From the sequence record SRR20825019_415: a DNA stretch of 45,540 nt. One strand, written 5' to 3'. A model generated the notes under the pieces. It was not told the DNA's origin. It was given only the letters and a program-made list of their open reading frames with translations, and searched no databases. The number at the start of each line of letters is the position of its first letter. The stretch's first letter is position 1. The position numbers and the translations under genes are program-made. Below are positions 31-40,276 of this stretch, piece by piece.

Positions 31-180
31 ATTCTCGCGCGCATCATGCGCGATCAGGGCGACCTGTTTGAAGACGGGCAACTGATGGCGCTGGCCAAGA
101 AGCTTTATGACGAACGCAACCGCATCAGCCAACCCGCCGCACTGGAAAACCTGATGTCCGATCTGATGAAATCGGCATAA
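1..180 (+). CDS. 3' part of a junction-spanning small protein (72-78 aa; starts at GTG 45454 or ATG 45472), convergent on int
   Basis: Reading across the junction gives VTIAITMKGARRIDTGDTITLARIDRALAILARIMRDQGDLFEDGQLMALAKKLYDERNRISQPAALENLMSDLMKSA*, TAA at 178-180; GTG lies 1 nt after the upstream TAA. Confidence 0.75.
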   Translation, partial: TLARIDRALAILARIMRDQGDLFEDGQLMALAKKLYDERNRISQPAALENLMSDLMKSA

Positions 181-1480
181 GCGATATCTTCAAAAGCCAG
201 TCGCGCTTTTGCGCCAGTGACGGCCCTGCCCCGTATTTCTCACGATGGAATTTATGCCCCATCAGGGCCGCGGCGATCTTGTCCGGCGCTTCGACCGCCG
301 TTAACCGATCCTCGAAGCAATGCCGCAGCGAATACAGGCTTTGCCTGCCATGCTCGAACGCATGATGATCGCGCATGAACTTGTTCACCGCATTGGAAAA
401 CCCGGTATTGTTGCCAAGATACCGCACGATCCCGCCCGCATTGATCAATGCCGCCGCCGCGGGCAACGCCCCGCCAACCAGCGGTATCTGCCGTTCTGAT
501 GGTTCGTTCTTAAGCTGCCGGATCCGGTTCGGGCTGATCTGGATATAGGGCACCTTGCCATCAAGCCGGATATCATCGGGCAGCAATCCGCATATCTCGC
601 TGGGCCGTGCCCCGGTTTCGGCCAGTATCGCGGTAATCAGGCGGGCTTCATCATTCATCCCGGCCATGATCGCAAGCGGCGATAACACCACGTCATAGGC
701 CCATTGCGCCGATACGGTTGCGCCGCGCTTTTTGCCGCCCGCCTTTTTGGTGGCAAAGGAAATATTGACGAACGGATTCGCACGCCCGCCCAGATAGGCA
801 TCGCCAATCGTGCGGAACATGGCGCGCAGGCTGTTGAATTCCTTGTTGGCCGATTTGGGCGAAAGCCCTTCCTCGGTCATGCGCCGCGACCATCTGGCGC
901 GAAACGCCAGCGCGTCGGCCCGCTCGATCTCCGACACCACCTTGTCGCCGATTTCATCGATGAGGCTGGCGACGGATCGCCTGTACGGACCAAGGGCGAC
1001 CTTGATCTGCCGGTCGGACTTGCCAACCCGCTGATCGCGCGTCAGGCTTTCATATTCGGCAAACAGCCCCGACAGGCGCAATTGCGGCTCGGGGGCAGCG
1101 CCCAGAACGGCCGTCGTGATCCGCCGGTCATCGACCCCGTCAAGGGCTTCAAGGCGTTCGATCACCTCGCCCGCCGTCGCGTTCACTGCCAGGTCATCGG
1201 CGGTGCGATATCGCCAGCCCAGCCGCCCGGCCAGCGCACGGGCATTGGCATAACGTTCGGCAATCAGGGTCGCCTTGCCGGTCGCGCGCAGGTCATCCCA
1301 ATAGGCCATGACCCGGTCATTGACCGCGCCGACACGGTCACACGCCATGTCATAACTATCGGTCTTAAGCGATATCTTGACCTCTCGCCCCAGCACATCC
1401 TCAAGATCCGATGGTACGCGGCGACGATAGGAATATTTCACCCCGCGCCGGGTGATATATCTGCGCGCATTCTCGCCCAT
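125..1480 (-). CDS. int: Tyrosine recombinase/integrase with DUF6538-like N-terminus
   Basis: TGARPSEI (R), LKN (K), YSLRH, MGH, KYG catalytic motifs; N-terminal YSYRRRVPSDL...ISLKT; start taken at ATG 1480 because the upstream in-frame extension covers the attP arm repeats. Confidence 0.93.
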   Translation of the reverse strand: MGENARRYITRRGVKYSYRRRVPSDLEDVLGREVKISLKTDSYDMACDRVGAVNDRVMAYWDDLRATGKATLIAERYANARALAGRLGWRYRTADDLAVNATAGEVIERLEALDGVDDRRITTAVLGAAPEPQLRLSGLFAEYESLTRDQRVGKSDRQIKVALGPYRRSVASLIDEIGDKVVSEIERADALAFRARWSRRMTEEGLSPKSANKEFNSLRAMFRTIGDAYLGGRANPFVNISFATKKAGGKKRGATVSAQWAYDVVLSPLAIMAGMNDEARLITAILAETGARPSEICGLLPDDIRLDGKVPYIQISPNRIRQLKNEPSERQIPLVGGALPAAAALINAGGIVRYLGNNTGFSNAVNKFMRDHHAFEHGRQSLYSLRHCFEDRLTAVEAPDKIAAALMGHKFHREKYGAGPSLAQKRDWLLKISLMPISSDRTSGFPVRRVG

Positions 1481-1492
1481 GAATCCCGCCCC

Positions 1493-1528
1493 GTGTACCA
1501 AAGTGTGTACCAAAATGTGTACCAAAAC
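1493..1528. repeat. attP arm-type sites: 3 tandem 12-bp repeats GTGTACCAAAA(T)
   Basis: gtgtaccaaagt gtgtaccaaaat gtgtaccaaaac directly upstream of int. Confidence 0.85.
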
Positions 1529-1627
1529 CGAAGGCGCGAGGGTATTCATACCGCGATCATACGTCAAGCGCGACGAATGCCAACCACATAAACCATTGTT
1601 TTTGTTTTGTTATTTGGTGCGGAAGAG

Positions 1628-12892: not shown

Positions 12893-13138
12893 CTATCTCC
12901 GTGACGGTTTCCAGCCCCGAAGGGCTGCCCGCAATTTGTCGGCGACTTCATCCTTGGATGGCTGCCGTGTTTCCGGTTCGTCATCGACGCCATTGCTTTT
13001 GCGCAGGAAATCGATGCGGCCATCAAGCGCCAGCAGAATGCGCGGGACCGGCGTTTGCATCGCCTGTTCATCCGACCAGCCAAGCCATCCGGTCGCATAG
13101 CGATAAACAAGGTCCCACCATTCATCAAGGCTTACGGC
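12893..13138 (-). CDS. Tail assembly chaperone T segment (-1 frame)
   Basis: Frame after GGGAAAG reads AVSLDEWWDLVYRYATGWLGWSDEQAMQTP...RR*, stop at 12893-12895. Confidence 0.8.
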   Translation of the reverse strand, partial: AVSLDEWWDLVYRYATGWLGWSDEQAMQTPVPRILLALDGRIDFLRKSNGVDDEPETRQPSKDEVADKLRAALRGWKPSRR

Positions 13139-13518
13139 TTTCCCGGCGCTTCATCCGCATCGCCCGCATCATCGGCAACATCGTTGCCATCAATGATCGG
13201 GCGTCCGCCATTCAGAAGAACCGTGATGTAATTGATCAGGTCCGCGCCAAGCTTGGCCTTGTCCGGCTCCTGCCAGATGGTCGTGACCAGATCGTCATAT
13301 TCCGACGGCTTAAGCTTCAAGCCAGCCCCGGCAACGATAATCTGGGCCATCGCGTCGAAATCAAGATCACGCACCTTGCGATAGGCCGGGTTAAGGCCAC
13401 CGGCAAAGCTGTTGATCATCCGCACCGCGGATAGTTTCGGCGCAAGATAATGAACAGTGCCCGCGACCGTAACGGTCAGTTCCGGGGCCGTGGCAACAGC
13501 CTGTTTTGTCTTGGTCAT
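13132..13518 (-). CDS. Tail assembly chaperone G
   Basis: 128 aa after the tail tube gene, ends APGKP with G GGA AAG. Confidence 0.82.
   Translation of the reverse strand: MTKTKQAVATAPELTVTVAGTVHYLAPKLSAVRMINSFAGGLNPAYRKVRDLDFDAMAQIIVAGAGLKLKPSEYDDLVTTIWQEPDKAKLGADLINYITVLLNGGRPIIDGNDVADDAGDADEAPGKP
13138..13144 (-). other. -1 ribosomal frameshift site GGGAAAG
   Basis: Same heptamer as lambda G/GT, in G GGA AAG phase. Confidence 0.85.
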
Positions 13519-13550
13519 CTGGATACCTTTCGGGGATCGGGGGAAAAGAT

Positions 13551-13581
13551 GGCGGGCGCGAACCCCCGTCACGCGCCCGCC
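13551..13581 (-). terminator. GC hairpin after the tail tube gene
   Basis: ggcgggcgcg / cgcgcccgcc stem followed by atcttttcc on the minus strand. Confidence 0.5.
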
Positions 13582-13596
13582 TGCCGCGGCAATCTG

Positions 13597-14067
13597 TTAA
13601 ACGGCGGCGACTTCAATCGGTCGGGTATTGATCCCGATATTACAGGTGGCACCGACAACACTTTCAGGACTGCCAATCTGACGACGGAACGACATCACAC
13701 GCCCGCGGAAAAAGAATGTCGTCGGGCTGGAAGGCGAACCGGTCCCGGCATCATTCAATGTCACCTTGAACGCCCATTCGTTGTCCGACGCCAACGCAGC
13801 CTTGCATTGGTTCTGCCCCGTATCATCCGGGTCATAACCAAGCTGCAAAGGCAGTGACCCCGGATCCTCGGTGCCCTTGAACTTGCGCACCAGACGATCC
13901 GCAAGCGAGACATGGGTAATCGTCGAAAATTCCGCCCCGAATTCACCCAGATCGGTAATTTCAGCAACTTCAAGGTATGTTTCCGCCTCGAACGCCGACT
14001 GCGTTGCCGCGACAGATGATCCGTCGGAAATAGAAAGTGTACACCCGGCCGCTGTTTGCACGGTCAT
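13597..14067 (-). CDS. Major tail (tube) protein
   Basis: EITDLGEFG, RKFKGTEDPG, FFFRGRVMS motifs. Confidence 0.85.
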   Translation of the reverse strand: MTVQTAAGCTLSISDGSSVAATQSAFEAETYLEVAEITDLGEFGAEFSTITHVSLADRLVRKFKGTEDPGSLPLQLGYDPDDTGQNQCKAALASDNEWAFKVTLNDAGTGSPSSPTTFFFRGRVMSFRRQIGSPESVVGATCNIGINTRPIEVAAV

Positions 14068-14112: not shown

Positions 14113-14490
14113 TTAAGGCCGGATGATCGCGCGCAGCGTCACCCGCCCGGTATAGGTCGTTCCGTCAACATCCTTTGACGTCGTCACCCGCTCGAACCGC
14201 AGGTTTTCACACACCCCGGAATCCATTGCCGGGCACGTGTTTTCCGTGGCGGTGCGGATGGTATCGGCAATCTGCTTGACTTCCTTGCGACCGGCATAAT
14301 CCGACCAGATCGACAGATAGACCATCACCGTTTCCCGGTACTGATCCAAGGCCCGGCTGTTTGACACCAGATCGGCATCAACCACCACATACGGATATTG
14401 CGCATCATCTGGCACATCATCGTAAACAGGACAGGACAACACCCCATCCAGCAGGGTGACGATGGCCTTTTGCAGATCAAGGCTGCTCAT
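14113..14490 (-). CDS. Tail terminator (DUF3168-like)
   Basis: LQKAI...VYDDVPDDAQYPYVV...IWSDYAGRKEVK. Confidence 0.85.
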   Translation of the reverse strand: MSSLDLQKAIVTLLDGVLSCPVYDDVPDDAQYPYVVVDADLVSNSRALDQYRETVMVYLSIWSDYAGRKEVKQIADTIRTATENTCPAMDSGVCENLRFERVTTSKDVDGTTYTGRVTLRAIIRP

Positions 14491-14837
14491 TGCACCGCCC
14501 CCGTTTCCGCCTCGATCACGCGATCAAGGGCACGCGCCACATCCGGCGCATGACGGATATCAAACACCAGCCCGCCCCACGAAAGCCGGTCACTCGCGGT
14601 TAAACCCGCCCAAACACCGGCATTGCGCGATGTGAACCGGTATCGTGATACTGCCCGCTTGGCATCGCCAACCGCACTTTCATCGCCGCTGATCTGCAAA
14701 CATTCCGCCCAGACCGTGCCGATATCGGCCCATGTTTCGGTTGCACCGCCATATCCATCCGGCGTGCGCGTGACGCGCTGCACCGTGACCCGCTGATCAA
14801 ATGCGCCAGCCCCGGCATTTCGCATCTTGCGCCGCAT
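14487..14837 (-). CDS. Head closure / head-tail adaptor
   Basis: QRVTVQR...DGYGG..ETW....TVWA. Confidence 0.85.
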   Translation of the reverse strand: MRRKMRNAGAGAFDQRVTVQRVTRTPDGYGGATETWADIGTVWAECLQISGDESAVGDAKRAVSRYRFTSRNAGVWAGLTASDRLSWGGLVFDIRHAPDVARALDRVIEAETGAVQ

Positions 14838-15448
14838 CAGAACACCTGCCGGAACGGGCTTAACAGCCAGTCCACCGTTTTGTTTTGATGGATTTCGAAA
14901 TCAACCGATTGCGCCTCGCGATGCTCATACAGATCGGCGATCAGAAGCAGCCCCGCATTGCGGATTGCCGCCGGAACGTCGTCCGCCGCATTGCCGTAGC
15001 CTGCCACAAAGGTCACCGTCACCGCATCAGGCACATCGCGGGTTGATGGCCATGTCTGACTGTATGCCGGCACAATGTGCGACGGATATTTTCCGCGGTT
15101 CACGACCTGATAAAGGCCGCTATCCAGGGTGATTTCATCGCCGTCATCGTCGATATATTCAATCGCCGATACCGTTTGCAAGGGCGGCAACGGTAACCGA
15201 ATGGCGCAGGATCGCTGCGGAAAACGCGGCAATTTCATTTGCCATGTCTGCGTGATCAGGGCGCGGCCCAAAATGCCGTCAATCCCGTCAAGATGGCTTT
15301 GAACCCCGTCGCGATAGATCGCAATCAGGTCCTTGTCTTCTGGCGCTGCCGGGCTGCCGGAAAGCGGCACGCGCAGATGTTCATACACCCGCGCATCTTC
15401 CATGAAATCCGCTGCCGGGTCGGCAGTTCGTACCAAACTGTAATCCAT
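14837..15448 (-). CDS. Head-tail connector (gp6/gp15-like)
   Basis: GRALITQTW, LPLPPLQTV, VTFVAGYG, VPAAIR, LYEHRE. Confidence 0.87.
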   Translation of the reverse strand: MDYSLVRTADPAADFMEDARVYEHLRVPLSGSPAAPEDKDLIAIYRDGVQSHLDGIDGILGRALITQTWQMKLPRFPQRSCAIRLPLPPLQTVSAIEYIDDDGDEITLDSGLYQVVNRGKYPSHIVPAYSQTWPSTRDVPDAVTVTFVAGYGNAADDVPAAIRNAGLLLIADLYEHREAQSVDFEIHQNKTVDWLLSPFRQVF

Positions 15449-15461
15449 CACCGCCCCAACG

Positions 15462-15486
15462 AAAAAGGGCCGCTCGAAGGCGACCT
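15462..15486 (-). terminator. Putative intrinsic terminator
   Basis: Minus strand ggtcgc-cttcga-gcggcc followed by cttttt. Confidence 0.5.
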
Positions 15487-15563
15487 GCGCGAAACCTGAA
15501 ACATTTGACATAACTTATAAAGCAAGCGTAGCATTCCACCCTTGATTGCAAAGGGAGTCTCAA

Positions 15564-15857
15564 ATGCGCACCGCCCCATTCATTATTATCGCAGCGACAT
15601 TACTCACCGCGTGCGAGACAACCGACCGCGCTCGCGCTACTGAATTCGAACCACTACCAAATGGTGAATTTAGATATCGCGCCGATCAGCTTTATCCGTA
15701 CACGAATGAAGACCTGATCCGCTGGATGGAAACATCATTATCGGAAAACAACTACTGCCAGAATGGTTATCAAATCACAGAAACCAAAGAAGTTGTTAGG
15801 GCTCAAACGATATTTGGCACCGCAATGTCCAAGATTTTCTTTGGCAAATGCAAATGA
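15564..15857 (+). CDS. Lipoprotein moron (paralog of 45138..45452)
   Basis: Lipobox LTAC; SD GGGAG; AT-rich; antisense to the late operon. Confidence 0.8.
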   Translation: MRTAPFIIIAATLLTACETTDRARATEFEPLPNGEFRYRADQLYPYTNEDLIRWMETSLSENNYCQNGYQITETKEVVRAQTIFGTAMSKIFFGKCK

Positions 15858-15932
15858 ACATGACGATAGACAAACTTAAATAGGCATCTGGACAAGTAAC
15901 CGATACCAAAGCACATCAGATTTTCTTTCCAA

Positions 15933-16514
15933 TTACACGTCCCACGGCTTTGGCACCCCGTGGTAGGCAACAATCGCCGCGTGATCCGGGACGCCTTTGA
16001 GGCAATGTACCTTGTAACTGACAACTTCCCGCCCGAAGCGCGACGGGGCACGTTTTAGTGCGGCGGCAATAAATCCCTGATCGCCCCAGCAATCGCGATG
16101 ACGGCACCGCGCCATTGCCCCGTGCGGATCCGCACGAAACGCCTCATAGACCTCTCCCGGTGCATCACCGCACCATCCCATCACACCGGATGCCGGAAGA
16201 TCGGGCCGGTAGAAATCCGACAGCATGGTAAATTCGCGCACCGCCAGCGGCGCGATATCACCGACCACATCGGTATCAAGATCAAGATAGATCACCGACC
16301 CGGCAAACAGGCCGGGACGAAACAATTCGATCTTGGCAAACCAACCCGGCCAATCGTGCAAAAGATCAATACGATCACAATCGACCGAAACGTCAGACAG
16401 GCACACAAATCGCGCCGATGGCGTCGCCGCTTTCACCTGACCCTGCAGGCGCGATACATGCCAAGCCTGGTATTGCCCGCCGCTTCGCAAAACGCTGACA
16501 ACGGTCAATCCCAT
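15933..16514 (-). CDS. GT-A fold glycosyltransferase (GT8-like)
   Basis: GWFAKIELF, IYLDLD (DxD), ASGVM, GDQGFI, YHGVPKPW. Confidence 0.82.
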   Translation of the reverse strand: MGLTVVSVLRSGGQYQAWHVSRLQGQVKAATPSARFVCLSDVSVDCDRIDLLHDWPGWFAKIELFRPGLFAGSVIYLDLDTDVVGDIAPLAVREFTMLSDFYRPDLPASGVMGWCGDAPGEVYEAFRADPHGAMARCRHRDCWGDQGFIAAALKRAPSRFGREVVSYKVHCLKGVPDHAAIVAYHGVPKPWDV

Positions 16515-17056
16515 GCGAAAACATAATCCTTGTTAAACCGCGCCACGCATCTTGCGCCCCATTCTTCCATCAGCCGATTGGCCGCAAAAGGCGCAACGCC
16601 GTATCGCTGGCAAAGCCCGTTTTCCTCGATCATGACAACCGGCCGGTCACGCAGGATTATCCGCATTGCGCCCAGCAAGGCGAACCATTCGTACCCCTCG
16701 ACATCCAGTTTGATAAAATCGACATCGGCAATATCAAACTGGTCTAGCCGCACGATTTCAGTGCCATTACCTAATGCGACATGGGTTTGCCCGGTATTTT
16801 CCGTGCCAGATTGCATCGAACAACGGCCCCGCAATGCACCAAGGGCGGATTGGCAGACAATCGCACGCGGGTCGATCTTCTGGCAAAGGTCAGTCGGCTC
16901 GAACGCATAAACCGTATCGAACCTGTCACACAAAACCGATGTAAAAATCCCGCGATGCGCACCGCCATCAACCGCCGTGCGCCAGTTTTTCACGAATTTT
17001 AGCGCACCTTTCAGATGGGCCATGTCGTGATGATCAGGAAGGTCTTTCAAGGTCAT
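16505..17056 (-). CDS. FkbM-family SAM methyltransferase
   Basis: VDGGAHRG, VYAFEP, VDFIKLDVEGYE, RPVVMIE. Confidence 0.88.
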   Translation of the reverse strand: MTLKDLPDHHDMAHLKGALKFVKNWRTAVDGGAHRGIFTSVLCDRFDTVYAFEPTDLCQKIDPRAIVCQSALGALRGRCSMQSGTENTGQTHVALGNGTEIVRLDQFDIADVDFIKLDVEGYEWFALLGAMRIILRDRPVVMIEENGLCQRYGVAPFAANRLMEEWGARCVARFNKDYVFAWD

Positions 17057-17097
17057 GCCACCAACCCACCCTCAGACTTGACCGACGGATTATAAAC

Positions 17098-17367
17098 TTA
17101 ATCCATCAGACTGATTTGCTCACCATCTTCGAACTCGATGGATTTGACACGTCGCCACTTTTCCACCCCGTCACGGAGAGGATTAACAAAGAACGCTGCC
17201 TCTCCACTGATTTCGATTTCAGCCATGGTTATGTATATTTTGGCACATGACGGCACATCGACCGAAATTCCCCACTCGACGGCAGAGACGCCACGCAGCT
17301 CGTGCCCATCAGCAGAAACAATCTTGGTTCCGTGTGGTGTGCCGTCTGAGGTAATTTTCACATCCAT
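17098..17367 (-). CDS. Hypothetical protein (89 aa)
   Basis: MDVKITSDGTPHGTKI...; SD GGAG; overlaps the upstream stop codon. Confidence 0.6.
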   Translation of the reverse strand: MDVKITSDGTPHGTKIVSADGHELRGVSAVEWGISVDVPSCAKIYITMAEIEISGEAAFFVNPLRDGVEKWRRVKSIEFEDGEQISLMD

Positions 17368-18005
17368 GGGATATTCTCCAACCCCATCCGGGGAAAACAT
17401 TCAAGCCGCGTGTGCCGTGACGCATTGATCACCTGCACCCCGGCCCGGTCCAGATCGGGCAGCATGGTTTCGAAATTGGCCCGCCAGCGGGCGAAATCGT
17501 GATCCTGCGGGTTGTTCAGACCCGTCGGATGGTCCCCGAACCAGTGACGTCGGCCGTCATCGGCCACCCCCATGTCATAGCCCAGCAGAATGATGCGTTT
17601 TGCCCCAAACAGCACCGCCAGATTGATCGCCTGATATCCGCCATTGGCCCCGCGATGGATCACCGGGGGATTTAACGATATCCCCGGTTCATCAACACTT
17701 GGCACATGGCGCAGGCCGTGTATCAGGCTGGCTTGGCGGTCCTGGGTCCATTTTTCGCCGTCGAAGGCTTTGACGCCGTTGTGGTGGTCCCACCATTTTC
17801 CGTCGCAGGCGTAGAGGACGTCTGCGCCGCCGGTTCCGTCGGCTCCGATGGCGAGGTGCCAGGCATTGTTGACGGCGATGATCCGGCATCCAGCAGATCG
17901 GGCGTATTCGATGTCTGATCGGTCAAGGCTGGGTCCGTTTGCGGCGATGCAGACTGTTTGTCCGCGCCAGCGTCCGGCCCATTCGACTTTTTTGTCGGTT
18001 TGCAC
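17358..18005 (-). CDS. DUF115/MAF-like or sialyltransferase-like glycosyltransferase domain
   Basis: CIAANGPSL, IIAVNNA, ADVLYACD, NGGYQAINLAVLFGAKRIILLGYDM, VINAS. Confidence 0.75.
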   Translation of the reverse strand: MQTDKKVEWAGRWRGQTVCIAANGPSLDRSDIEYARSAGCRIIAVNNAWHLAIGADGTGGADVLYACDGKWWDHHNGVKAFDGEKWTQDRQASLIHGLRHVPSVDEPGISLNPPVIHRGANGGYQAINLAVLFGAKRIILLGYDMGVADDGRRHWFGDHPTGLNNPQDHDFARWRANFETMLPDLDRAGVQVINASRHTRLECFPRMGLENIPWM

Positions 18006-18178
18006 CGCCCGGTTTCCTCGGCAATGTCGGCAACACGCTGCGGCACCTGCCCGTCACCAACCGCCGCGCCATCGGCCACGACTTCATAGATGCCAGGCTG
18101 CACATCGCGCGGATGCATTTCACCGTTAAAGCACGCCTTGAATGCACGGGTAATCTGGATTTTTGCGAGTTTTGCCAT
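17723..18178 (-). CDS. Small head-operon protein with a Ser/Thr/Pro-rich tail overlapping the downstream GT-like gene
   Basis: ATG after the cement gene; about 64-aa N-domain plus an 87-aa tail with 42 S/T/P, 1 Arg and no Cys/Trp. Confidence 0.7.
   Translation of the reverse strand: MAKLAKIQITRAFKACFNGEMHPRDVQPGIYEVVADGAAVGDGQVPQRVADIAEETGRCKPTKKSNGPDAGADKQSASPQTDPALTDQTSNTPDLLDAGSSPSTMPGTSPSEPTEPAAQTSSTPATENGGTTTTASKPSTAKNGPRTAKPA
17987..17993 (-). other. Candidate -1 frameshift site A_AAA_AAG
   Basis: ACA AAA AAG in the frame of the 18178 ORF; the -1 frame is the GT-like ORF (AAA AAA GTC GAA TGG). Confidence 0.55.
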
Positions 18179-18185
18179 ATTAAAA

Positions 18186-18213
18186 CAGGGTGCCCGACCC
18201 ATCGGACACCCTG
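18186..18213 (-). terminator. Hairpin/terminator after the cement gene
   Basis: Minus strand cagggtgtccga-tggg-tcgggcaccctg followed by tttt. Confidence 0.6.
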
Positions 18214-18244
18214 CCTTTCACTTCAAATTACGTCAGATCGGCGA

Positions 18245-18718
18245 TCAGTCAGAAGTCGGCGCCAGCGCAGGATTGCCCAGCACGGCCACGAATGCCATCG
18301 GCGTTGCACCAGGCGTGTTTGCCGCGGTTGCGACCACACGGACATAGCGTTTCGTGCCAATATAGCCGACGCGATAAACCGTATCGTCCTCGGCGGCGTC
18401 ATCAACTGTCAGGAACACACCGGTTGAAGCATTTGGCGCAGTAACCGGCGATTTTGCCGACCCGACCAGCACATCATTGGCATCGGTCACATCGGTAAAA
18501 TCGGATGACTGGCTGTCACTGTGCTGCAGCTTGAACGCCCAGGACGGCTGCGGCGAGTTGGCGATATTTGCGACCGCCCCGACGCTGATCAGGAATTCCG
18601 ACGAAGAAAAACCGGCAAGATCAACGCCATTTGTCGGCGTCACGGTTGCGGTTGGTGCCCCGACATAGTGCGACACCGCCTTGATATTGGAATGAAGATC
18701 ACGACGGATCATATCCAT
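18245..18718 (-). CDS. Capsid cement/decoration protein
   Basis: Directly after the MCP; NGVDLAGF, LQHSD, VGYIGTKRYVRVV (beta-rich). Confidence 0.72.
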   Translation of the reverse strand: MDMIRRDLHSNIKAVSHYVGAPTATVTPTNGVDLAGFSSSEFLISVGAVANIANSPQPSWAFKLQHSDSQSSDFTDVTDANDVLVGSAKSPVTAPNASTGVFLTVDDAAEDDTVYRVGYIGTKRYVRVVATAANTPGATPMAFVAVLGNPALAPTSD

Positions 18719-18746
18719 TCTCCTTTGATGATAAATAAAAAGGCAA

Positions 18747-18771
18747 TGACCGGCTGTTTAACAGCCGGTCA
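18747..18771 (-). terminator. Inverted repeat after the MCP gene
   Basis: tgaccggctgtt-t-aacagccggtca followed by a T-rich tract on the minus strand. Confidence 0.6.
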
Positions 18772-18782
18772 CGTGTCACAAA

Positions 18783-20168
18783 TCAGGAAGCAGAAGCCTT
18801 GACCAACTTGATCGCATCGAAGTTGCGAACATCGCCGCCTGTACGCTTCGCAATATAGAAGCCGACATAAGGCTTGTTGGTAAGGTTATCGCGGATCAAA
18901 CGGAAGCCCGAACGATCAATGATCTTGTAGCCCTGCTGGAAGTTGCCGAACGCGATAGAGAACGAGTCCGCGCCAAGATCAGGCATGTCTTCCAGATTGG
19001 TGATCGGGCAACCGTGGATATCGAACTGCAACGCGCCTTCAATCTGGCTCATGCCGATCAGATAACGGCCTTCCGCATCTTTCAGCTTGCGGATTTCCGC
19101 CTCGACCGTGCGGTTCATCGTCCAGCGCGCACCCGCGCGATAGTTCGGGTGAAGGGCAGCGATGGTATCGATCAGACAGTTGGCGTTTGCCGCCCCGTTG
19201 GTAAGGGACGGGAACGCGCCAGCGTCACCCATCGGGATATATTGCAACTTGCCCCATGCCCGACCGGCCTTGTCGGTGGTGGTAACAGCGGTATCCTTGT
19301 AAGCAAGGAAGCCTTTCGGCTTCATGACGCCATCGCCGCCGACAAACGCGGTGTTTTCAACGCGGCCCATTTCGTCCTGCGTTTCCTGCACCAGCCAGCC
19401 TTCGATATCAAGGCTGGCATCGTCCAGCATGTCCTGGGTGATTTCAGGATAGGCATACTGTTCATGCACTTCGATGCGCTGGGTGCCAACCGTCGGCGTA
19501 TCGGTCGCCGGACGCGCCGAACGCTCCCCGACCCAGCCGCCTGATGTACCCTTGCTGGTTTTGTAAGGCGCAGTCCAAGCGGAAGTTCCAATCGTGGTTA
19601 CGCTGGAAATCTGGCGCATCGGCGAGGTATCAAAGATACGCTGCACCATTTCGGTGGAAACCTCGGTCGGCACGAAATAGCCGCCTTTCGGATCGGAACC
19701 AACCGAAAGCGCATTGCGGATTTCCGGCGCTAGGTTATCAACATTGCCCTCGCGACGCACCAGCGTATCAAAGGCTCCGCGATATTCCTGATAGGCTTCA
19801 ATATCGGCGGCATCACCAACCGCTACCCGTTTGCCACGCGCCAAAGTCATGAAACGCGCGGCATTCTGTGCCAGTTCTGCACCATCGCCACCACCAGGAC
19901 CACCGATCAGGGCGCGCTGGGCGGCTTTCTGCGCCGTTTCCAGCGCAGCTTTGAGTGCGGTGATTTCGGTATTCATGTTGTCGACGGTTTCGCTGTTGGC
20001 CTTGCCTTTCAGCGCTGCGTCGTTTTCGGCCCGCATCTGCGTCATCAGGCCCTCGATCTTGGCGACAATCGCCTTTGGATCGCTCAAATCCGGGTTCGGC
20101 GTCGGCTCTGGACCGTTGAAAGCGGTGATCGCCACCGACACAGCCGCATTTTTAACAATCGCGTTCAT
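18783..20168 (-). CDS. HK97-fold major capsid protein
   Basis: Delta-domain-like coiled N-terminus; GGYFVP, GDGVMKPKGFL, IAFGNF, KRTGGDV. Confidence 0.95.
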   Translation of the reverse strand: MNAIVKNAAVSVAITAFNGPEPTPNPDLSDPKAIVAKIEGLMTQMRAENDAALKGKANSETVDNMNTEITALKAALETAQKAAQRALIGGPGGGDGAELAQNAARFMTLARGKRVAVGDAADIEAYQEYRGAFDTLVRREGNVDNLAPEIRNALSVGSDPKGGYFVPTEVSTEMVQRIFDTSPMRQISSVTTIGTSAWTAPYKTSKGTSGGWVGERSARPATDTPTVGTQRIEVHEQYAYPEITQDMLDDASLDIEGWLVQETQDEMGRVENTAFVGGDGVMKPKGFLAYKDTAVTTTDKAGRAWGKLQYIPMGDAGAFPSLTNGAANANCLIDTIAALHPNYRAGARWTMNRTVEAEIRKLKDAEGRYLIGMSQIEGALQFDIHGCPITNLEDMPDLGADSFSIAFGNFQQGYKIIDRSGFRLIRDNLTNKPYVGFYIAKRTGGDVRNFDAIKLVKASAS

Positions 20169-21064
20169 CGCGTCATGCTCCGTTCAAGATTTTCGGAAAA
20201 GGCCGACAATTCGGCCCAGAATTCTGCGTTTTCGGCGTCATCACCAGCATCCCGCTGGTCATCTGCTTGATTTCCGCGCGCCGCCATTGCCTTGGCCTGC
20301 GCACGGGAATGCCCGGCATCCCGCAGGGCACGTTCGGTATCGCGAATGGTCGGTCCGGCTGACTGCGCGGTAAATCCGCGCAGCCCGTCCGGCACCTTCG
20401 CAAAACAGGAAAGATCAAACTTGGCTTTAGCTTCCTCGGCCTTGCCAACCACATCAGCAAAGCCGTTTTCACGGGCATCTGCCGCCGAAAGCCAGGTTTC
20501 ATCGTCCATCATTTCGACGATTTCGGCACGATCCATGCCGGTGCGCGCCGCATATGTGTCGGCAAGCGCCCCGTCGATCTGTTCCAGAACCGCTGCAACA
20601 TCGGAAATCGCGTTGCGATCCCCGACGGCCAGCGTCCATGCATTGTGGATCATGAAGAATGCGTTATCGGCGATGGTGATCTTGTCACCTGCCATCGCGA
20701 TCAGGGATGCCGCAGATGCTGCAAAACCCGTTACCTCGACCTCGACCCGCGCCTTATGCGCGACCAGATCGTTGAACATCGCAATGCCGTCGAAAACATC
20801 CCCGCCCGGCGAGTTGATCCGAAGCCGGATCGTGCCGCCGGTCACATTCCTAAGCTGCTGGCGGAAATCCTTGGCCGAAACGCCCCAAAAACCGATTTCG
20901 TCATACAGATCGATTTCGGTGACATCCCCGGCGTTCTGCACGTCGAACACCCGGCCACTCGCCCGGTTAAAAAACGGGCGAGCGGTCGATTGTGTCAACC
21001 CGTCCGGCATTGCGATGGGCGCAGGCCCGTTAAAGAACCGCTGGCCGTTATTCAGTCGCCGCAT
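20165..21064 (-). CDS. ClpP-like (S14/S49) prohead protease
   Basis: INSPGGDVFDG, AASAAS, MIHNAW, ETWLSA. Confidence 0.93.
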   Translation of the reverse strand: MRRLNNGQRFFNGPAPIAMPDGLTQSTARPFFNRASGRVFDVQNAGDVTEIDLYDEIGFWGVSAKDFRQQLRNVTGGTIRLRINSPGGDVFDGIAMFNDLVAHKARVEVEVTGFAASAASLIAMAGDKITIADNAFFMIHNAWTLAVGDRNAISDVAAVLEQIDGALADTYAARTGMDRAEIVEMMDDETWLSAADARENGFADVVGKAEEAKAKFDLSCFAKVPDGLRGFTAQSAGPTIRDTERALRDAGHSRAQAKAMAARGNQADDQRDAGDDAENAEFWAELSAFSENLERSMTR

Positions 21065-22319
21065 TGTTCGCCTCCGCCTTACGGTTCATGCCTTTGAACG
21101 TGCCATCATCAGGCTGCATGTTGCTTTCGATAATGTAACCGTCACCACCCGCATCATCGCGGTTGTTCATTTCTTCCAATCCGCGCCACTCGTTCGGGTT
21201 GATCACGCCGTTGCGGCGCTGAATTGCCAGACCTTCCTGCCGTGACTTGAAATCACCACGCAGCAATGCATTGGTGTTGAACTTGCAGTAAAGGTCAGGA
21301 TCGCCCATAAGATCGCGCTGTGCGGCCTGTTCCCACGCCACCAGGTGCGGCATCAGACTGGAATTCACATATTCCAGCGATTGGTGTTCGATATTGCTGA
21401 ATGTTGCCCGGTCCAGATCGCCGATCTTGTGCGGCGGAACGCCAAAAATGCCGCAAATTTCGGTGCGGTTGAATTTACGGCTATCAAGATACTGCGCATC
21501 TTCCATAGTCAGGCTCATGGGGTTGTATTTCACCCCCTGATCCAGAACCGCAATGCGCCCGGTATTTTCGACGCCGCTATAAAGCGTTTCAAAGTCGGAT
21601 CGCATCGCTCTTTTGTCTTCTGGCCCGATTTTGGCCTCAGCTTCCAGAGTTCCGCTTGGCCGCGCCCCATTAGCAAAGAACCGGCTGCCATGTTCGCGGA
21701 GCGCAAGCCCATCGCCGATGGTTTCCCGGTAATGCGCCACCGTATTAAGCCCGGTAACACCATCATCCGACGGCCCGCGCAGGTGAAACACCTCTTTTTG
21801 CTCAAGGACAACGCGCCGTCCGTCCTTGCGGGTATATTCGTAGGTGATCGCAAGGGTGCGATCATCCTGCTTTGGCACCACACGATCCGGATGCAGGGGA
21901 ATAAGTTCCTGTATCCGGTTGCCAAATCCACGGACAATAAGAGCATAACCATTGCCGCGAAGCAGCTTCGCACGCTGCTGGAACTGCTTGAACTCGAACG
22001 CGGTCTGCCATTCGTTCGCGCGCACCTTCAACAGGCTGTAAAGCGGATCATCCTTTGCAGGTTCGCGGCGATCCCCCGTTTTCCGATACAGAACAAGCGG
22101 TAACGCCGCGATATCATCCTGAAGAACACGCACACACGAACCGACAGCAGCGAGTCGCGCCGCCGTGGTGTTATTGACCACCACACCGGATGACGAACGG
22201 GAATCGCCGACCAGTTCCCGAATGGCTTTTTCAAGCTCCATCGGGTCGGTGATGCGGTTTTCATTGCGGGGACGACCGCCAAGCCCGGTCAGTTGTCCAA
22301 GCTTACTAAACAGGCCCAT
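21048..22319 (-). CDS. HK97-family portal protein
   Basis: LLRGNGYA, FFANGARPSG, IFGVPPHKIG, FSNIEHQ, LLRGD. Confidence 0.95.
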   Translation of the reverse strand: MGLFSKLGQLTGLGGRPRNENRITDPMELEKAIRELVGDSRSSSGVVVNNTTAARLAAVGSCVRVLQDDIAALPLVLYRKTGDRREPAKDDPLYSLLKVRANEWQTAFEFKQFQQRAKLLRGNGYALIVRGFGNRIQELIPLHPDRVVPKQDDRTLAITYEYTRKDGRRVVLEQKEVFHLRGPSDDGVTGLNTVAHYRETIGDGLALREHGSRFFANGARPSGTLEAEAKIGPEDKRAMRSDFETLYSGVENTGRIAVLDQGVKYNPMSLTMEDAQYLDSRKFNRTEICGIFGVPPHKIGDLDRATFSNIEHQSLEYVNSSLMPHLVAWEQAAQRDLMGDPDLYCKFNTNALLRGDFKSRQEGLAIQRRNGVINPNEWRGLEEMNNRDDAGGDGYIIESNMQPDDGTFKGMNRKAEANNAATE

Positions 22320-22331
22320 CGGCTGCCCCCG

Positions 22332-24125
22332 TCAACCGAACATGCTGCCCGGCTCATATGAAATAACGTTGCTGTCTTCTTCTGCCGAAATCATCCGGCC
22401 CAGCGCCATCAGCATCGCGACCACGCCATCGATCTTGCGCATGTCCTTGCGGGTATCCGGCTTGATCGGGCGCATATTGCCGCTGTCATCCATCTTGACG
22501 GCGGTATTGGCGATCATCCAGTCCATGACAGGATTGCCGTCATGCGCAATAGAACCCTCAAGTACCAGCCGTTCCAACTCGCGGCACGGTGCCGCCATGC
22601 TGACGAAACCCTGCCCGCAGGCAACACACAGCACGTCACGTTCCTCAAGATGCTGGATCAACTGACCGGCGAAATACCGGTCATAATCTACTTCCATCAC
22701 CTCGAATTCGTTGATCAGGCCGGTATTGCCGGCGTCATCCCCGATAATGAAATGCTCTATGGCGTCATAGTTTGTTGCCGTGCCCTCGGTCTGAAAAATC
22801 AAACCGTCGCGCAGCCAGACATCGTATGGCACCGCCTGATCTACCCGGCGTTTCTCAATCGTGCCGAACGGCACCCAGAAAAACGGCATGATCTTGACCG
22901 GTTCACCGGGATCAACAGGCGGAAACACCAGAACAAGGGCCGTAATGTCGCTAACCGCGCCGAAATCAAGCCCGATATAGCACCGACGCCCCCGCATGGA
23001 TGCGCGATCATATACAGTTTCGCAGGCGCGCCATTTCTCGATATCGAGCCAGATTTCCGACGTCTGGCTCCAGACATTCAGATAAAGCCGCATCTTCGAC
23101 GCCAAGGCAGACGGGTTATCTTCCGCCTCCTTGAATTCGGCTTTAAGGCCATCGGCGAACACCGAAATTCCGTAATTCGGGTTGGCTTTTTTCCAGCTTA
23201 TTTCGTCAAACGGGTCATCGCCGGGATCGATCGAACAGATAAACCCGAACCAGCCATCGTTTTCGAACAGCCCTTTCAGGACATTGACCGTGTAATCATG
23301 ATGTTCGCGGCAGATCGAATGCGGATCCGCACCAGCCGTGGTGATTTCCACCGTCAATGGCTGTTCGCGGGCACCTGTCCCTGTACGCAGAACGTCAATC
23401 AGCAACCGGTTGGGATGCGCATGGACCTCATCAATGATGTTGCAATGGCTGTTCAGACCATCCAGACGCTTGCCGTCCGCCGAAATATACTTGAACACCG
23501 AAAATGATTTCGGATGCTCCATGTGATGCGCCCGTTCCCGGACGCGCTTGCGCAAAACCGGGCTGGTGCGCGCCATTTTGGCGGCTTCATCAAAAACAAT
23601 CTTCGCCTGGTCGGCCTTGGTGGCGGCGGCATAGACCTGCGCGCCCGGCTCACCATCGGCGACCATCATGTAAAGCCCGATGGGCGACAGGAACGTCGAC
23701 TTGCCGTTTTTTCGCGGCACCTCGATATAGGCCATGCGAAACCGGCGCTTTTGGGTCGATTCCCACAGCCAGCCAAACATTACGGCTGTGCAAAACGCCT
23801 GCCAGTTCGCCAGTTCAAAGACCTGCCCGCCCCATTTCCCCGTGGAATGCCGCAGATATCCGAAAAACCGGATCGCATGATCGGCACGCGGGATCGAAAA
23901 ATAAAGCCCGCGCTTCGGACCATAGACCAGATCGTCAAGATGGCGCTGGCATGCGGCAATCCGCAGCTTGCAGGCCGGTATTTTTCCCTCGACAACATCC
24001 AGCGCATAGATCGTGCTGACATGGCCAAGCACCGCTTCGGGCACCTTCTTTGCCAGCACGGCACGGGTAACCTTGCGGGCTTTGCGTTTACGTGACCCGG
24101 TTGCTTGCGAAGTCGTCGAAGTCAT
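22332..24125 (-). CDS. terL: Terminase large subunit
   Basis: VPRKNGKS (Walker A), IIDEVH (Walker B), ITTAG, KANPN, GLDFG, KIDGVVA. Confidence 0.96.
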   Translation of the reverse strand: MTSTTSQATGSRKRKARKVTRAVLAKKVPEAVLGHVSTIYALDVVEGKIPACKLRIAACQRHLDDLVYGPKRGLYFSIPRADHAIRFFGYLRHSTGKWGGQVFELANWQAFCTAVMFGWLWESTQKRRFRMAYIEVPRKNGKSTFLSPIGLYMMVADGEPGAQVYAAATKADQAKIVFDEAAKMARTSPVLRKRVRERAHHMEHPKSFSVFKYISADGKRLDGLNSHCNIIDEVHAHPNRLLIDVLRTGTGAREQPLTVEITTAGADPHSICREHHDYTVNVLKGLFENDGWFGFICSIDPGDDPFDEISWKKANPNYGISVFADGLKAEFKEAEDNPSALASKMRLYLNVWSQTSEIWLDIEKWRACETVYDRASMRGRRCYIGLDFGAVSDITALVLVFPPVDPGEPVKIMPFFWVPFGTIEKRRVDQAVPYDVWLRDGLIFQTEGTATNYDAIEHFIIGDDAGNTGLINEFEVMEVDYDRYFAGQLIQHLEERDVLCVACGQGFVSMAAPCRELERLVLEGSIAHDGNPVMDWMIANTAVKMDDSGNMRPIKPDTRKDMRKIDGVVAMLMALGRMISAEEDSNVISYEPGSMFG

Positions 24126-24576
24126 CGAACAAATCACCCTGCCCTACGGCACTGTTCAACGCCCGCGCGGCACTCGGCGTCATGCCGAATTCGGCAAAAA
24201 GACGCAGTGCGGTGCGCCGGGTTTCGTTGAACTGCGCGACCTCCGGCCGTGATTTCATCTGTTTTCCGTTGCGCCCGAATACCTCATAGGTCTCCCCAAG
24301 CGCCCGGAAGGCGTCTCGATATTCCGCCATCTTCGCCAGGCAATGGCACAACTCGACCAGCGACCACACGAACAGCGGGTCAAGGCGGTTCCTTTCCGCT
24401 AGCGCGGGTGCCACATCATCCCAGAAACGCGCCACATCTTTCGGCATGCCAGACGGCTTCAACGCCGCCGCCTGTTCAGCAGATTCGCGCTTGCGCGCTT
24501 CTGGATCGCGACTGCGACCATCAACGGTCAGCGGTATAACGTTATCTTTGATATCCGGCTTTCGTCCGCGCGCCAT
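24088..24576 (-). CDS. terS: Terminase small subunit (P27 family)
   Basis: MARGRKP, RPEV, EFGMTPSAAR. Confidence 0.9.
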   Translation of the reverse strand: MARGRKPDIKDNVIPLTVDGRSRDPEARKRESAEQAAALKPSGMPKDVARFWDDVAPALAERNRLDPLFVWSLVELCHCLAKMAEYRDAFRALGETYEVFGRNGKQMKSRPEVAQFNETRRTALRLFAEFGMTPSAARALNSAVGQGDLFDDFDDFASNRVT

Positions 24577-38826: not shown

Positions 38827-38956
38827 CCCGCACTGCCCTCAATTTTAAGGGGAGCACCGGCGCAAAATTGCGCCGGTGGTGATCTTCGCCACAACCAATT
38901 CACTCACCGCAGAATTGCGCTAAGTGACGTTTCCATAGACCAGATTGGAACCAACC

Positions 38957-39511
38957 ATGAAACTCTCAAACGAAATCCGTGACAACATCATCAAAGCCCT
39001 GATAAAGCACCGATTCGCAGCCGATCAGGAAGCCATTGAGCAGCAGGAAACCGCGCTCGCCGACAAACTCTATTGCGACTATTACGGACCGACGACACGC
39101 AAACTGATGAACAGCATGCCGGACGGCGCTTTGCCGGTCACGCGCGATACCTTTGTCAACTTCGCCGGGTGCCGGGACACGTTGAAATTTTCCAGCGAAC
39201 GGCGCTGCTTCTATATCGACCGCTATAGCGGATCGACCATGCGCGGCACAGCGTACGACGCGCAACACGCCTTTACCCTTGAATGGACCGCACTGGAAAA
39301 CGCCCGCAAGGATTTGAAGGAACGGAAATCGCAGGCAGCAGCCAAGGCCGAAGCCGTTTTGAAAAGCGTTGGTTCATCCAAGCGCCTGCTTGAAATCTGG
39401 CCCGAGGTTGAACCCTTCCTGCCGCCAGAACCGGCCAAGGCTCAACTCCCCGCGACCATCACCCAGGACCTTAACAAGGCCCTCGACCTGCCGGTCGCCA
39501 ACGCCGCATGA
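38957..39511 (+). CDS. Nmad5-like protein
   Basis: MKLSNEIRDNII...SSKRLLEIWPE...LP. Confidence 0.7.
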   Translation: MKLSNEIRDNIIKALIKHRFAADQEAIEQQETALADKLYCDYYGPTTRKLMNSMPDGALPVTRDTFVNFAGCRDTLKFSSERRCFYIDRYSGSTMRGTAYDAQHAFTLEWTALENARKDLKERKSQAAAKAEAVLKSVGSSKRLLEIWPEVEPFLPPEPAKAQLPATITQDLNKALDLPVANAA

Positions 39512-39527: not shown

Positions 39528-40265
39528 ATGTTCAAACCACACGAAACCGCCTATCAGGTCGCGCGCCAGAACTTTCTGGCCTACGCGGCGGCCCATGAAC
39601 AGGGTTGCGCATCCGATGAAGATCGCGCAACCGCCCGCGAACAGCTTGCCAGAACCGACTGGCTGGCCAGCGTGATTGATCAGCTTGATTGCCTGCGCAA
39701 TCATCAGGATCAAGTGTCTGATCGCAACGCGCATACCCGTGCGCTGGGCGATTTCTTTGCCCTCGCCGACGAGGCGACCGTTGGCGATTATCCAGATGAT
39801 TTCAAAAGTGACAAAGCCAAAGCGATCAACCTGGTCATCAGCAACGCCACCCGCTGGCGCAAGCAGATCGCCGAATGCGGGGCGGGCTTCAACCCGCTTC
39901 TGATCGCAAGCGATATCGTGGTTCTGCAGAAGAAGATCGACCGGATACTGTTCGGCCACGAAACCTTCAGGGCCCATCAGATCCGCGATTGCACACCGTC
40001 GCGCATCGCCTTTTGCGTCGAAACCACCCGGCCAACCGCCGACAACGCGGCAAATGATGCAGGCGAAACCGTGCATATCGCCTGGTGCGCCGAACACAAA
40101 CCGGGATCAACCCGCATGGATTCCCTGATCGGCCCCTATGCCACCCTGTTTTACGCCACCCGCATCGCCAACGCGATGAACCGCGCCATCGGCATCACCC
40201 AGCCCGCCGCAACCGAACTGACCGGCAACAGCCTCCGCATGGCCCGGCTGATTGCGGCGGCGTGA
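39528..40265 (+). CDS. Hypothetical protein
   Basis: SD AAGGA, 245 aa. Confidence 0.7.
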   Translation: MFKPHETAYQVARQNFLAYAAAHEQGCASDEDRATAREQLARTDWLASVIDQLDCLRNHQDQVSDRNAHTRALGDFFALADEATVGDYPDDFKSDKAKAINLVISNATRWRKQIAECGAGFNPLLIASDIVVLQKKIDRILFGHETFRAHQIRDCTPSRIAFCVETTRPTADNAANDAGETVHIAWCAEHKPGSTRMDSLIGPYATLFYATRIANAMNRAIGITQPAATELTGNSLRMARLIAAA

Positions 40266-40276
40266 AAGGAACCATC

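Follow-up and report, generated by a model that had tools for sequence, protein, structure and literature searches.

We analysed a 45,540-nucleotide (nt) stretch of SRR20825019_415, called the window below, to which all coordinates refer. Its head operon holds a cassette of three enzyme genes that encode a Maf/DUF115-like enzyme, an FkbM-family S-adenosylmethionine (SAM) methyltransferase and a GT-A glycosyltransferase (GT). We conclude that this cassette represents a widespread head-module system with a probable, conserved and so far unannotated -1 frameshift. An earlier reading of the same DNA, the original prediction, had seen here a candidate virion glycosylation and methylation system. 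The observation itself is confirmed and its interpretation is partly supported: the enzyme identities, their solubility and their place in the head operon stand, and the serine/threonine (S/T)-rich acceptor protein probably does not. All three enzyme open reading frames (ORFs) were found again at their positions, on the minus strand. The features of the locus, from the capsid gene to the adaptor gene, are as follows (aa, amino acids; bp, base pairs).

18783-20168, minus strand: major capsid protein (MCP), HK97 type, with N-terminal delta region (Pfam Phage_capsid, phrog_10)
18746-18772, minus strand: terminator-like hairpin and T-run directly 3' of the MCP gene (12-pair stem from a scan)
18245-18718, minus strand: 157-aa head-module protein (phrog_5707, function unknown, E 3e-21)
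18182-18217, minus strand: perfect 16-bp hairpin, then UUUU, between the 157-aa gene and the small ORF (RNA fold)
17723-18178, minus strand: small 0-frame ORF, 151 aa (translation)
17987-17993, minus strand: A_AAA_AAG slippery heptamer, in phase with the small ORF
17922-17987, minus strand: stem-loop 3' of the heptamer, candidate frameshift stimulator (RNA fold)
17358-18005, minus strand: Maf/DUF115-like enzyme core, 215 aa (phrog_4603, Maf fold)
17098-17367, minus strand: 89-aa protein, function unassigned, start overlapping the DUF115 stop
16505-17056, minus strand: FkbM-family SAM methyltransferase, 183 aa (PF05050, TIGR01444, phrog_8156)
15933-16514, minus strand: GT-A glycosyltransferase, GT8 (retaining) fold with DxD, 193 aa (phrog_1962)
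15564-15857, plus strand: lipoprotein-like ORF with LTAC lipobox (translation)
14837-15511, minus strand: head-tail adaptor, downstream boundary of the cassette (phrog_442, E 1.5e-19; TIGR02215, 67.4 bits vs 39)

The genes had been described as tightly packed between a capsid cement gene and the head-tail connector. Packing is tight within the cassette, where the GT and FkbM genes, and likewise the 89-aa and DUF115 genes, overlap by about 10 nt, but a 420-nt gap separates the GT gene from the adaptor gene and contains the opposite-strand lipoprotein-like ORF, which had gone unmentioned. The families of the flanking genes bear out a site between capsid-side head genes and the adaptor, although the label "cement" is unproven. 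One small hypothetical gene had also been listed. The ORF (17098-17400) is present, but it more likely starts at ATG 17367, with GGAG 8 nt before it, and so encodes 89 aa. The 89-aa protein has no match in Pfam, PHROGs or NCBIfam, and among 83 loci its only homologue is in contig L004.

The place of the DUF115 gene is widely kept. Protein searches gave 2008 DUF115 relatives among 2174 candidates and 878 GT relatives among 1020. Positions were counted in 80 IMG/VR contigs that contain a relative of DUF115, the best 80 among 590 confirmed hits. In 60 of the 80, DUF115 is preceded on its own strand by a portal homologue, and in no contig is one found elsewhere; an adaptor homologue follows DUF115 in 51 and precedes it in 2, and 36 contigs have both portal upstream and adaptor downstream. 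Thus, in most of these contigs the gene keeps its place between the capsid-side genes and the adaptor. Its companions vary: GT8 homologues occur in 12 contigs, FkbM homologues in 9 and both in 7. A survey of 34 representative loci found 62 ORFs between DUF115 and the adaptor. The phrog_1962 glycosyltransferase is present in eight loci and methyltransferases of five PHROG families in ten, and the other ORFs include further DUF115 paralogues, a sulfotransferase-like gene and unknowns such as phrog_6804. In five loci DUF115 directly adjoins the adaptor with no partner gene. From these arrangements, DUF115 seems to be a constant "anchor" enzyme whose tailoring partners are exchanged, much as happens in glycan-diversifying loci.

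The cassette had been treated as an alphaproteobacterial matter, and this view does not hold, as homologues include pmgO, pmgP and pmgQ of phage P1 and orf7 of phage D3. Members of phrog_4603 are P1 pmgO, D3 orf7 and PAJU2 ORF010, the last labelled "structural protein" by its depositor on a basis that we could not confirm. P1 pmgQ belongs to phrog_1962 and P1 pmgP to the paralogous phrog_2111. P1 thus probably has two Maf-like paralogues (pmgO and pmgP) and a GT8-like pmgQ, parted by the phosphatase gene ppp. DUF115 proteins match phrog_2111 weakly, and the pmgP locus lies at 6153-6779 of L002. Tetraselmis viridis virus S20 (TvV S20), whose annotated host is the green alga Tetraselmis viridis and which is classed in the tailed phages (Caudoviricetes), has a ten-gene version of the cassette between its head genes and its head-closure gene. 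We found no description in the literature, in which subscription journals were poorly covered, of DUF115/Maf-like enzymes in phage head modules or of a frameshift in DUF115 cassettes.

Identity of the three enzymes

The three enzymes very probably form a glycan-building and glycan-tailoring set. The product of 17358-18005 had been called DUF115/Maf/sialyltransferase-like, and profile and fold agree with this call. It matches phrog_4603, "alpha-2,3-sialyltransferase", with E 7e-45. An AlphaFold2 model from a 35-sequence alignment (predicted local distance difference test, pLDDT, 94.9) superimposes on the central domain of the Maf structure 5mu5 with VIA Z 16.3 and a root mean square deviation of 2.9 A over 182 residues. 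It aligns to residues 263-512 only of the 632 aa of 5mu5, which is also its top Foldseek match (TMq 0.65). Seven positions (G24, S26, N46, D68, D144, H154 and H159) are invariant in all 35 sequences of the family.

The FkbM assignment of 16505-17056 stands, with the curated cut-offs of both models passed (PF05050 Methyltransf_21, 43.2 bits vs 22.7; TIGR01444 fkbM_fam, 42.7 vs 37.7). For 15933-16514, read as a GT-A glycosyltransferase with a DLD motif, a GT8-type fold and an invariant aspartate pair agree with the call. The protein matches the phrog_1962 glycosyltransferase (E 6e-46) and P1 PmgQ (32.6% identity, E 8e-25), and both aspartates of D78-L79-D80 are invariant in 33 of 33 aligned homologues. 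The family profile (A2) finds Skp1 alpha-galactosyltransferase 6mw5 (E 5.8e-6) and glycogenin (E 1.4e-4) in the PDB. Foldseek matches the AlphaFold2 model (pLDDT 97.1) to glycogenin (E 6e-9, TMq 0.68) and also to LgtC and GlyE. The family has a conserved C-terminal stretch like H-G-x-P-[KR]-P-W, which we take to be the GT8 metal-binding histidine motif. The Pfam cut-off for PF01501 Glyco_transf_8 is not passed (E 0.061, 13.3 bits vs 24.3).

A structural comparison had been proposed as a check, and both modelled enzymes do resemble glycosyltransferases, one of the Maf kind and one of GT8. None of the three had shown a signal peptide or transmembrane segment, and their highest Kyte-Doolittle 19-residue means, at most 1.39, are those of soluble enzymes. 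We postulate that all three work in the cytoplasm, that the Maf-like enzyme is probably a transferase of acidic sugars activated with cytidine monophosphate (CMP), and that the GT8-type enzyme would be a retaining hexosyltransferase.

The predicted -1 frameshift

The original prediction contained nothing on how the Maf-like enzyme is made. Its span ended at 18178, the ATG of a small ORF that overlaps the DUF115 gene in another frame. Residues 1-58 of this ORF (18005-18178) form a conserved domain, the N-domain, and the remainder, rich in serine, threonine and proline (S/T/P), runs over the DUF115 gene. Eighteen codons before the GPSL motif of the enzyme, the small ORF reads ACA AAA AAG, an in-phase A_AAA_AAG, and the -1 frame at this heptamer is the DUF115 frame. 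The window has 8 copies of A_AAA_AAG on both strands, and about 0.003 would be expected in phase within the 39-codon overlap. The segment 17900-17993, which includes the stem-loop 3' of the heptamer, folds with -32.2 kcal/mol (z -2.54), and 1 of 200 shuffles of this segment was equally stable. Heptamer and frames are kept in contig L004, which is 91% identical, so a sequencing error is unlikely. The ATG at 18178 lies 6 nt after the 16-bp hairpin, and a Shine-Dalgarno sequence is absent.

We predict that ribosomes on the ORF from 18178 would slip at A_AAA_AAG into the DUF115 frame and make a fusion of about 260 aa, the 58-aa N-domain followed by the enzyme, so that at least part of the Maf-like enzyme would come from programmed -1 frameshifting. 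We think it very likely that the frameshift is real in the DUF115 family and, with less assurance, rather likely that it is used in this phage.

The family provides most of the evidence. In 53 of 122 loci, no ATG, GTG or TTG occurs in the DUF115 frame after the upstream stop and before GPSL. Among control genes of seven types from the same loci, counted only if the match began near the N-terminus of the query, 8 of 205 in total lacked a start (portal 1/63, adaptor 4/36, Hc1 0/39, MTP 0/18, TerL 3/18, GT8 0/16 and FkbM 0/15; MTP, major tail protein). We dereplicated 84 loci to 63 representatives, dropping those with fewer than 120 residues in the ORF after GPSL (at least L068, at a contig end). 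The frame is start-less in 27 representatives. An overlapping upstream ORF puts DUF115 at -1 in 23 of these 27, and 16 have an in-phase X_XXY_YYZ heptamer. Counted over all 63, 26 have the heptamer in phase, compared with 6 for each of the two remaining phases. The sequences are typical of bacterial slippery sites: A_AAA_AAG, G_GGA_AAG and A_AAA_AAC, with C_CCA_AAG in phage D3 and C_CCT_TTG in TvV S20. An independent set of 46 loci from genome contigs has 15 start-less frames, 12 of them with the overlap and 10 with a heptamer.

The N-domain recurs as well. It aligns with nine relatives, and a hidden Markov model (HMM) built from 25 N-domains and searched within 480 nt upstream of DUF115 finds it in 58 of 130 loci. 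DUF115 lies at -1 to the domain in 55 of these, takes the other shifted frame in 3 and is never in frame with it; 25 of the 55 are seeds of the HMM, and many of the 30 non-seeds are close copies of seeds. In four database proteins (P0049, P0059, P0055 and P0035; phmmer E 2.7e-9 to 7e-6) the N-domain is fused in frame to DUF115, and the fusion is thus a natural architecture. In phage D3, orf6.5 and orf7 (L003, 5691-6409) have the same small ORF and -1 layout. D3 orf7 as annotated starts after the conserved GPSL N-terminal strand, and TVGG_00049 of TvV S20 (L001, TVGG_00049/00050) is likewise short, with its heptamer in the upstream ORF. By this reading of the sequences, the public annotations of both phages miss the frameshift.

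It is possible, though we consider it the poorer account, that there is no recoding here, and that the two ORFs are ordinary overlapping genes, the enzyme starting at GTG 18005 and the heptamer being a relic or due to chance. This alternative bears on the production of the enzyme alone and would fit any target. It draws on observations that count against a frameshift. The first GTG of the DUF115 frame, at 18005, has GAGGA 9 nt upstream, so the enzyme could be made without a frameshift; gene callers start close homologues there (P0002 and P0003 begin MQ..KK). An in-frame start is present in 36 of the 63 representatives, and P1 pmgO has its own ATG behind an unrelated upstream ORF. Moreover, 11 of the 27 start-less representatives lack a canonical heptamer, and at such type B loci (e.g., L008, L010, L011, L057 and L069) we did not locate the shift site. 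The genome-contig set shows no enrichment by phase (11 in phase, 11 and 6 off phase). Against two ordinary genes stand the small number of in-phase heptamers expected in the overlap, the hairpin that comes after the heptamer, the in-frame fusions of both parts, and the recurrence of N-domain, -1 layout and heptamer where a start is absent.

The S/T-rich protein that had been offered as an acceptor is most likely the alternate-frame continuation of the ORF 17723-18178 over the DUF115 gene. The S/T-rich 0-frame tail (17723-18004) was considered as a selected acceptor and rejected. When the synonymous codons of the DUF115 frame were shuffled (2000 shuffles per locus, 63 representatives), selection on tail length was not shown, with p 0.043 in the window and 0.1 to 0.5 or 1.0 in most relatives. 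Within the tail, the conserved motif STPATENGG... simply results from reading the likewise conserved LYACDxxWW in the +1 frame, and in contig L007 the 0 frame stops four codons into the overlap. That frame would be expected to be S/T/P-rich in genes rich in GC at third codon positions (GC3). From its sequence, the tail is probably a by-product.

As an internal comparison for the predicted shift, the window also holds what is, by its layout, a classical tail-assembly-chaperone frameshift. The chaperone ORF (13132-13572, minus strand, 146 aa) has G_GGA_AAG at codon 144, near 13143, and its -1 frame is open for 82 codons, to about 12893.

Possible targets and genomic context

The position of the cassette and the probable joining of its first enzyme to a putative capsid-binding domain suggest that the phage sugar-coats its own head. 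We postulate that the N-domain would dock the enzyme on the capsid protein or procapsid, and that the three enzymes would place a short, methylated glycan on a head protein, either the MCP or the 157-aa protein, during assembly. The hairpins 3' of the MCP and 157-aa genes, together with a low frameshift yield, would keep the enzyme far rarer than its substrate. The hairpin at 18182-18217 probably attenuates read-through into the cassette; the segment 18172-18246 folds with -29.9 kcal/mol (z -3.98), and none of 200 shuffles was equally stable. We favor a head-protein target on the strength of the constant position within the head operon, the predicted translational link to a domain of the head module, the docking prediction described below and the precedent in mycobacteriophages. 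We give a virion head protein as the target an even chance, and the explanation as a whole, a frameshift-made, capsid-docked and head-glycosylating set, could equally well be right or wrong.

The docking prediction hints, modestly, at binding of the N-domain to the capsid protein, and the depositor's label "structural protein" for PAJU2 ORF010 agrees with this. The N-domain has no PHROG match and no usable match in the Atlas, and in Pfam only a weak match to DUF7210 in P0015 (E 0.012) and in one of ten A3 members (E 0.008). A complex was predicted from the N-domain, MCP residues 155-461 and the 157-aa protein, without alignments and with three chains, unlike the calibration. The score was 0.57, compared to 0.00 for the best of three controls and 0.00 when the MCP was replaced. 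Runs agreed in at least 100% of contacts, and partner pLDDT was at least 76. In the calibration, 51 of 78 solved complexes and 2 of 108 mismatched pairs reached the mark; scores of 0.60 or less came from only 5 of those 78 solved complexes and from all 4 passing mismatches (of 180).

Two head proteins could receive the glycan. The MCP (Phage_capsid, E 5.4e-70, residues 162-457 of 461) belongs to the context and is also a possible acceptor or docking site. The 157-aa protein is 20% S+T, with several threonines and serines invariant among homologues, and homologues come after the MCP in L004-L007, L054 and L077; its composition makes it a reasonable candidate acceptor. In contig L077 (5334-6346) the ORF that overlaps the DUF115 gene from upstream encodes the homologue of the 157-aa protein, with no separate N-domain ORF between the two. 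The 157-aa protein had no match in Pfam and no sequence or profile match in the PDB, and the sole lead is that its nearest named Atlas cluster (score 0.92) has Bbp16 on 18% of members. "Cement" is thus an unproven label, and a role as a decoration or cement protein is possible.

Several points weigh against a capsid-docked, head-glycosylating set. The target is placed wholly by position, and the glycan, the acceptor site and the timing of expression are inferred in the same way. By its own calibration, the docking prediction is weak. According to Freeman et al. 2023, the glycan acceptor sites of mycobacteriophages are reportedly S/T-rich C-terminal extensions on capsid or tail-tube proteins. 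The MCP, with four residues after its Pfam domain, lacks an S/T-rich C-terminal tail, as does the 156-aa tail-tube protein. Family scans found no sugar-nucleotide pathway among the window genes, and a NeuB-family synthase is present in only three of five host genomes with a related prophage. GT8 enzymes also build cores of lipopolysaccharide (LPS), and a host-envelope target fits the folds equally well. In P1, the enzyme (pmgO) has no N-domain; pmgO, pmgP and pmgQ are dispensable for plaque formation, according to passages of PMC10695390, and the virion proteome table of PMC9024508 includes PmgC and PmgG as the only Pmg proteins.

The main alternative, which we regard as unlikely, is that the enzymes act from the cytoplasm on surface glycoconjugates of the host, such as LPS core, O-antigen or flagellin, for example to stop progeny or rival phages from adsorbing to infected cells, and that the head operon is a tolerated insertion site. 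The GT8 fold is shared with LgtC, a galactosyltransferase of LPS and lipooligosaccharide (LOS), the Maf fold is that of flagellin glycosyltransferases, and the PHROGs category of phrog_1962 is "moron, auxiliary metabolic gene and host takeover". The P1 homologues, nonessential and absent from the virion table in the sources just cited, fit a host target too, and this junction also holds a probable moron, namely the opposite-strand lipoprotein-like gene, which has a promoter-like site of its own. In contrast, the cassette genes are co-oriented, overlap one another, lack a promoter of their own and have the GC content of their neighbors. The DUF115 position is kept in 51 to 60 of the 80 contigs across unrelated capsid types, and DUF115 is probably joined in translation to a head-module domain. 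Late expression would also leave little time to remodel the envelope.

It is quite improbable that the DUF115 protein is a different nucleotide-dependent enzyme, such as an MptE-like pyrophosphokinase or an SteA-like regulator, with either a head protein or some small molecule as its target. Its sole Pfam match is the MptE-like/DUF115 model PF01973, confined to residues 115-149 and under the gathering cut-off (28.9 bits vs 34.6, E 1.2e-6), and the fused homologues P0049, P0035 and P0015 likewise score under it. A DUF115 profile found no significant match among PDB sequences (best E 0.26). The fold also matches the hydroxymethyldihydropterin pyrophosphokinase (HPPK) MptE 8sd5 (Z 11.1), SteA 9hmy (10.4), the sialyltransferase Cst-I 2p56 (10.2), eukaryotic sialyltransferases (about 8) and thiamine pyrophosphokinases (7 to 8). 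However, Maf is well above all of these, and the genes found alongside DUF115 include glycosyltransferases, methyltransferases of the sugar type and a sulfotransferase-like gene.

That the cassette glycosylates or methylates phage DNA is hardly credible: partner methyltransferases in L056 and L083 match phrog_2675, labelled DNA methyltransferase, but the folds are typical of enzymes that act on proteins and glycans, the cassette belongs to the head module rather than the replication module, and the window has separate nucleotide-modification genes, Nmad5 (38945-39511) and DUF5131 (40085-41467).

Returning to the head-glycosylating set, we raise as a tentative and rather doubtful extension that a large and so far unrecognised class of phages of Gram-negative hosts glycosylates its own heads, with a conserved -1 frameshift joining a small capsid-binding domain to a minimal Maf-like acidic-sugar transferase. 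The class would take in D3-like Pseudomonas phages, the Thalassospira-type phage of this window and uncultured HK97-type phages in the hundreds. Each assembling procapsid would hold a few tethered enzyme molecules, which might stay in the virion, as the PAJU2 label hints; the frameshift rate would set the ratio of enzyme to capsid, and swappable GT8, methyl- and sulfo-transferases would diversify the glycan.

From its sequence, the window reads as a temperate HK97-type siphophage or prophage. The gene for a tyrosine integrase (125-1567, minus strand; N-terminal DUF6538 domain) is located at one window end, as would suit either a prophage or a temperate phage genome in full. Among proteins, the glycosyltransferase is closest to one from Thalassospira xiamenensis (94% identity), and a nucleotide search of phage records gave a single match, 189 nt of the capsid gene in three Pseudomonas phages. 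The other structural genes are as follows.

24088-24576, minus strand: small terminase
22332-24137, minus strand: large terminase
21048-22319, minus strand: portal
20165-21064, minus strand: ClpP-type protease
14487-14837, minus strand: head closure
between the head closure and major tail protein genes, minus strand: tail terminator
13597-14067, minus strand: MTP, 156 aa
10459-12447, minus strand: tape measure

The lipoprotein-like product of 15564-15857 (plus strand) begins MRTAPFIIIAATLLTAC. A promoter-like TTGACA-18-TAGCAT (10/12 matches) lies just 5' of the ORF, at 15505-15534, GC is low (0.516) across 15001-16000, and the ORF has no family match in Pfam, PHROGs or NCBIfam. These features make it a probable lysogen-expressed moron outside the enzyme set. 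In the early region, Nmad5 followed by DUF5131, both on the plus strand, form a separate candidate DNA-modification pair.

Significance and comparison with known systems

To our knowledge, a few mycobacteriophages are the only tailed phages with reported glycosylation of the particle by virus-encoded enzymes. If our explanation is correct, virion glycans would be widespread in proteobacterial phages, relatives of D3 and P1 among them, with a bearing on phage therapy (through immune clearance), on interactions with receptors and defences and on particle stability. The frameshift, if real, would be a recoding event of the head module separate from the well-known one of the tail chaperones, and a simple logic for bringing a low-copy enzyme to the assembling shell. 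P1 pmgO, pmgP and pmgQ, long labelled "putative morphogenetic function", would gain a testable role.

The Maf-like enzyme shares its central catalytic fold with the Maf flagellin nonulosonic-acid O-glycosyltransferases (Magnetospirillum 5mu5). It has the GPSL glycine-rich turn and the histidine and aspartate positions of Maf and, like Maf, would be protein-directed. In contrast to Maf proteins (632 aa in 5mu5, typically about 600), it has 215 aa and lacks the N- and C-terminal flanking domains; a 58-aa phage head-module domain is supplied instead, apparently by frameshift. The glycosyltransferase is like GT8 enzymes (glycogenin, Skp1 alpha-galactosyltransferase, LgtC and GlyE) in fold, profile and invariant DxD, but it has 193 aa, compared to 260-400 for GT8 members, and belongs to a phage-specific family (phrog_1962). 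Both enzymes miss Pfam thresholds and are much smaller than characterised members.

The same protein families occur in P1 pmgO-pmgP-ppp-pmgQ, in D3 orf6.5/orf7 (with orf12/orf13) and in PAJU2 ORF010-012. D3 is like the window in its small ORF and -1 layout, with C_CCA_AAG directly after its MCP gene. In contrast, the P1 genes are not adjacent to the capsid gene, and pmgO has its own ATG. In D3 and PAJU2 the partners of DUF115 are phrog_6804 and a different methyltransferase family, not GT8 and FkbM. The P1 homologues are, in the passages of PMC10695390 cited above, dispensable.

The mycobacteriophage systems are the nearest in logic. In cluster O mycobacteriophage Corndog, genes 35-38 within the head operon encode an O-methyltransferase, glycosyltransferases and an N-acetylglucosamine (GlcNAc)-transferase; passages of PMC4351075 describe gp35-38 as absent from virions and propose them as capsid modifiers. 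Glycosylation of capsid and tail-tube proteins in Che8, Corndog and Myrna, and a change in antibody recognition caused by virion glycosylation in mycobacteriophages, are reported second-hand in parts of PMC12363180. As in Corndog, glycosyltransferase and methyltransferase genes are here embedded in a structural operon. The mycobacteriophage hosts are Actinobacteria, and the relevant passages of those papers mention no Maf-like enzyme and describe no frameshift. The two systems are thus alike in logic and unlike in enzyme families and acceptor layout.

The predicted frameshift resembles those of dnaX and of lambda G/GT in its in-phase X_XXA_AAG heptamer and downstream hairpin and, as far as sequence can indicate, would likewise give two products with a common N-terminal part. 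Unlike dnaX and G/GT, the downstream frame in the window has a possible start of its own, and a whole enzyme domain would be appended to a small head-module domain.

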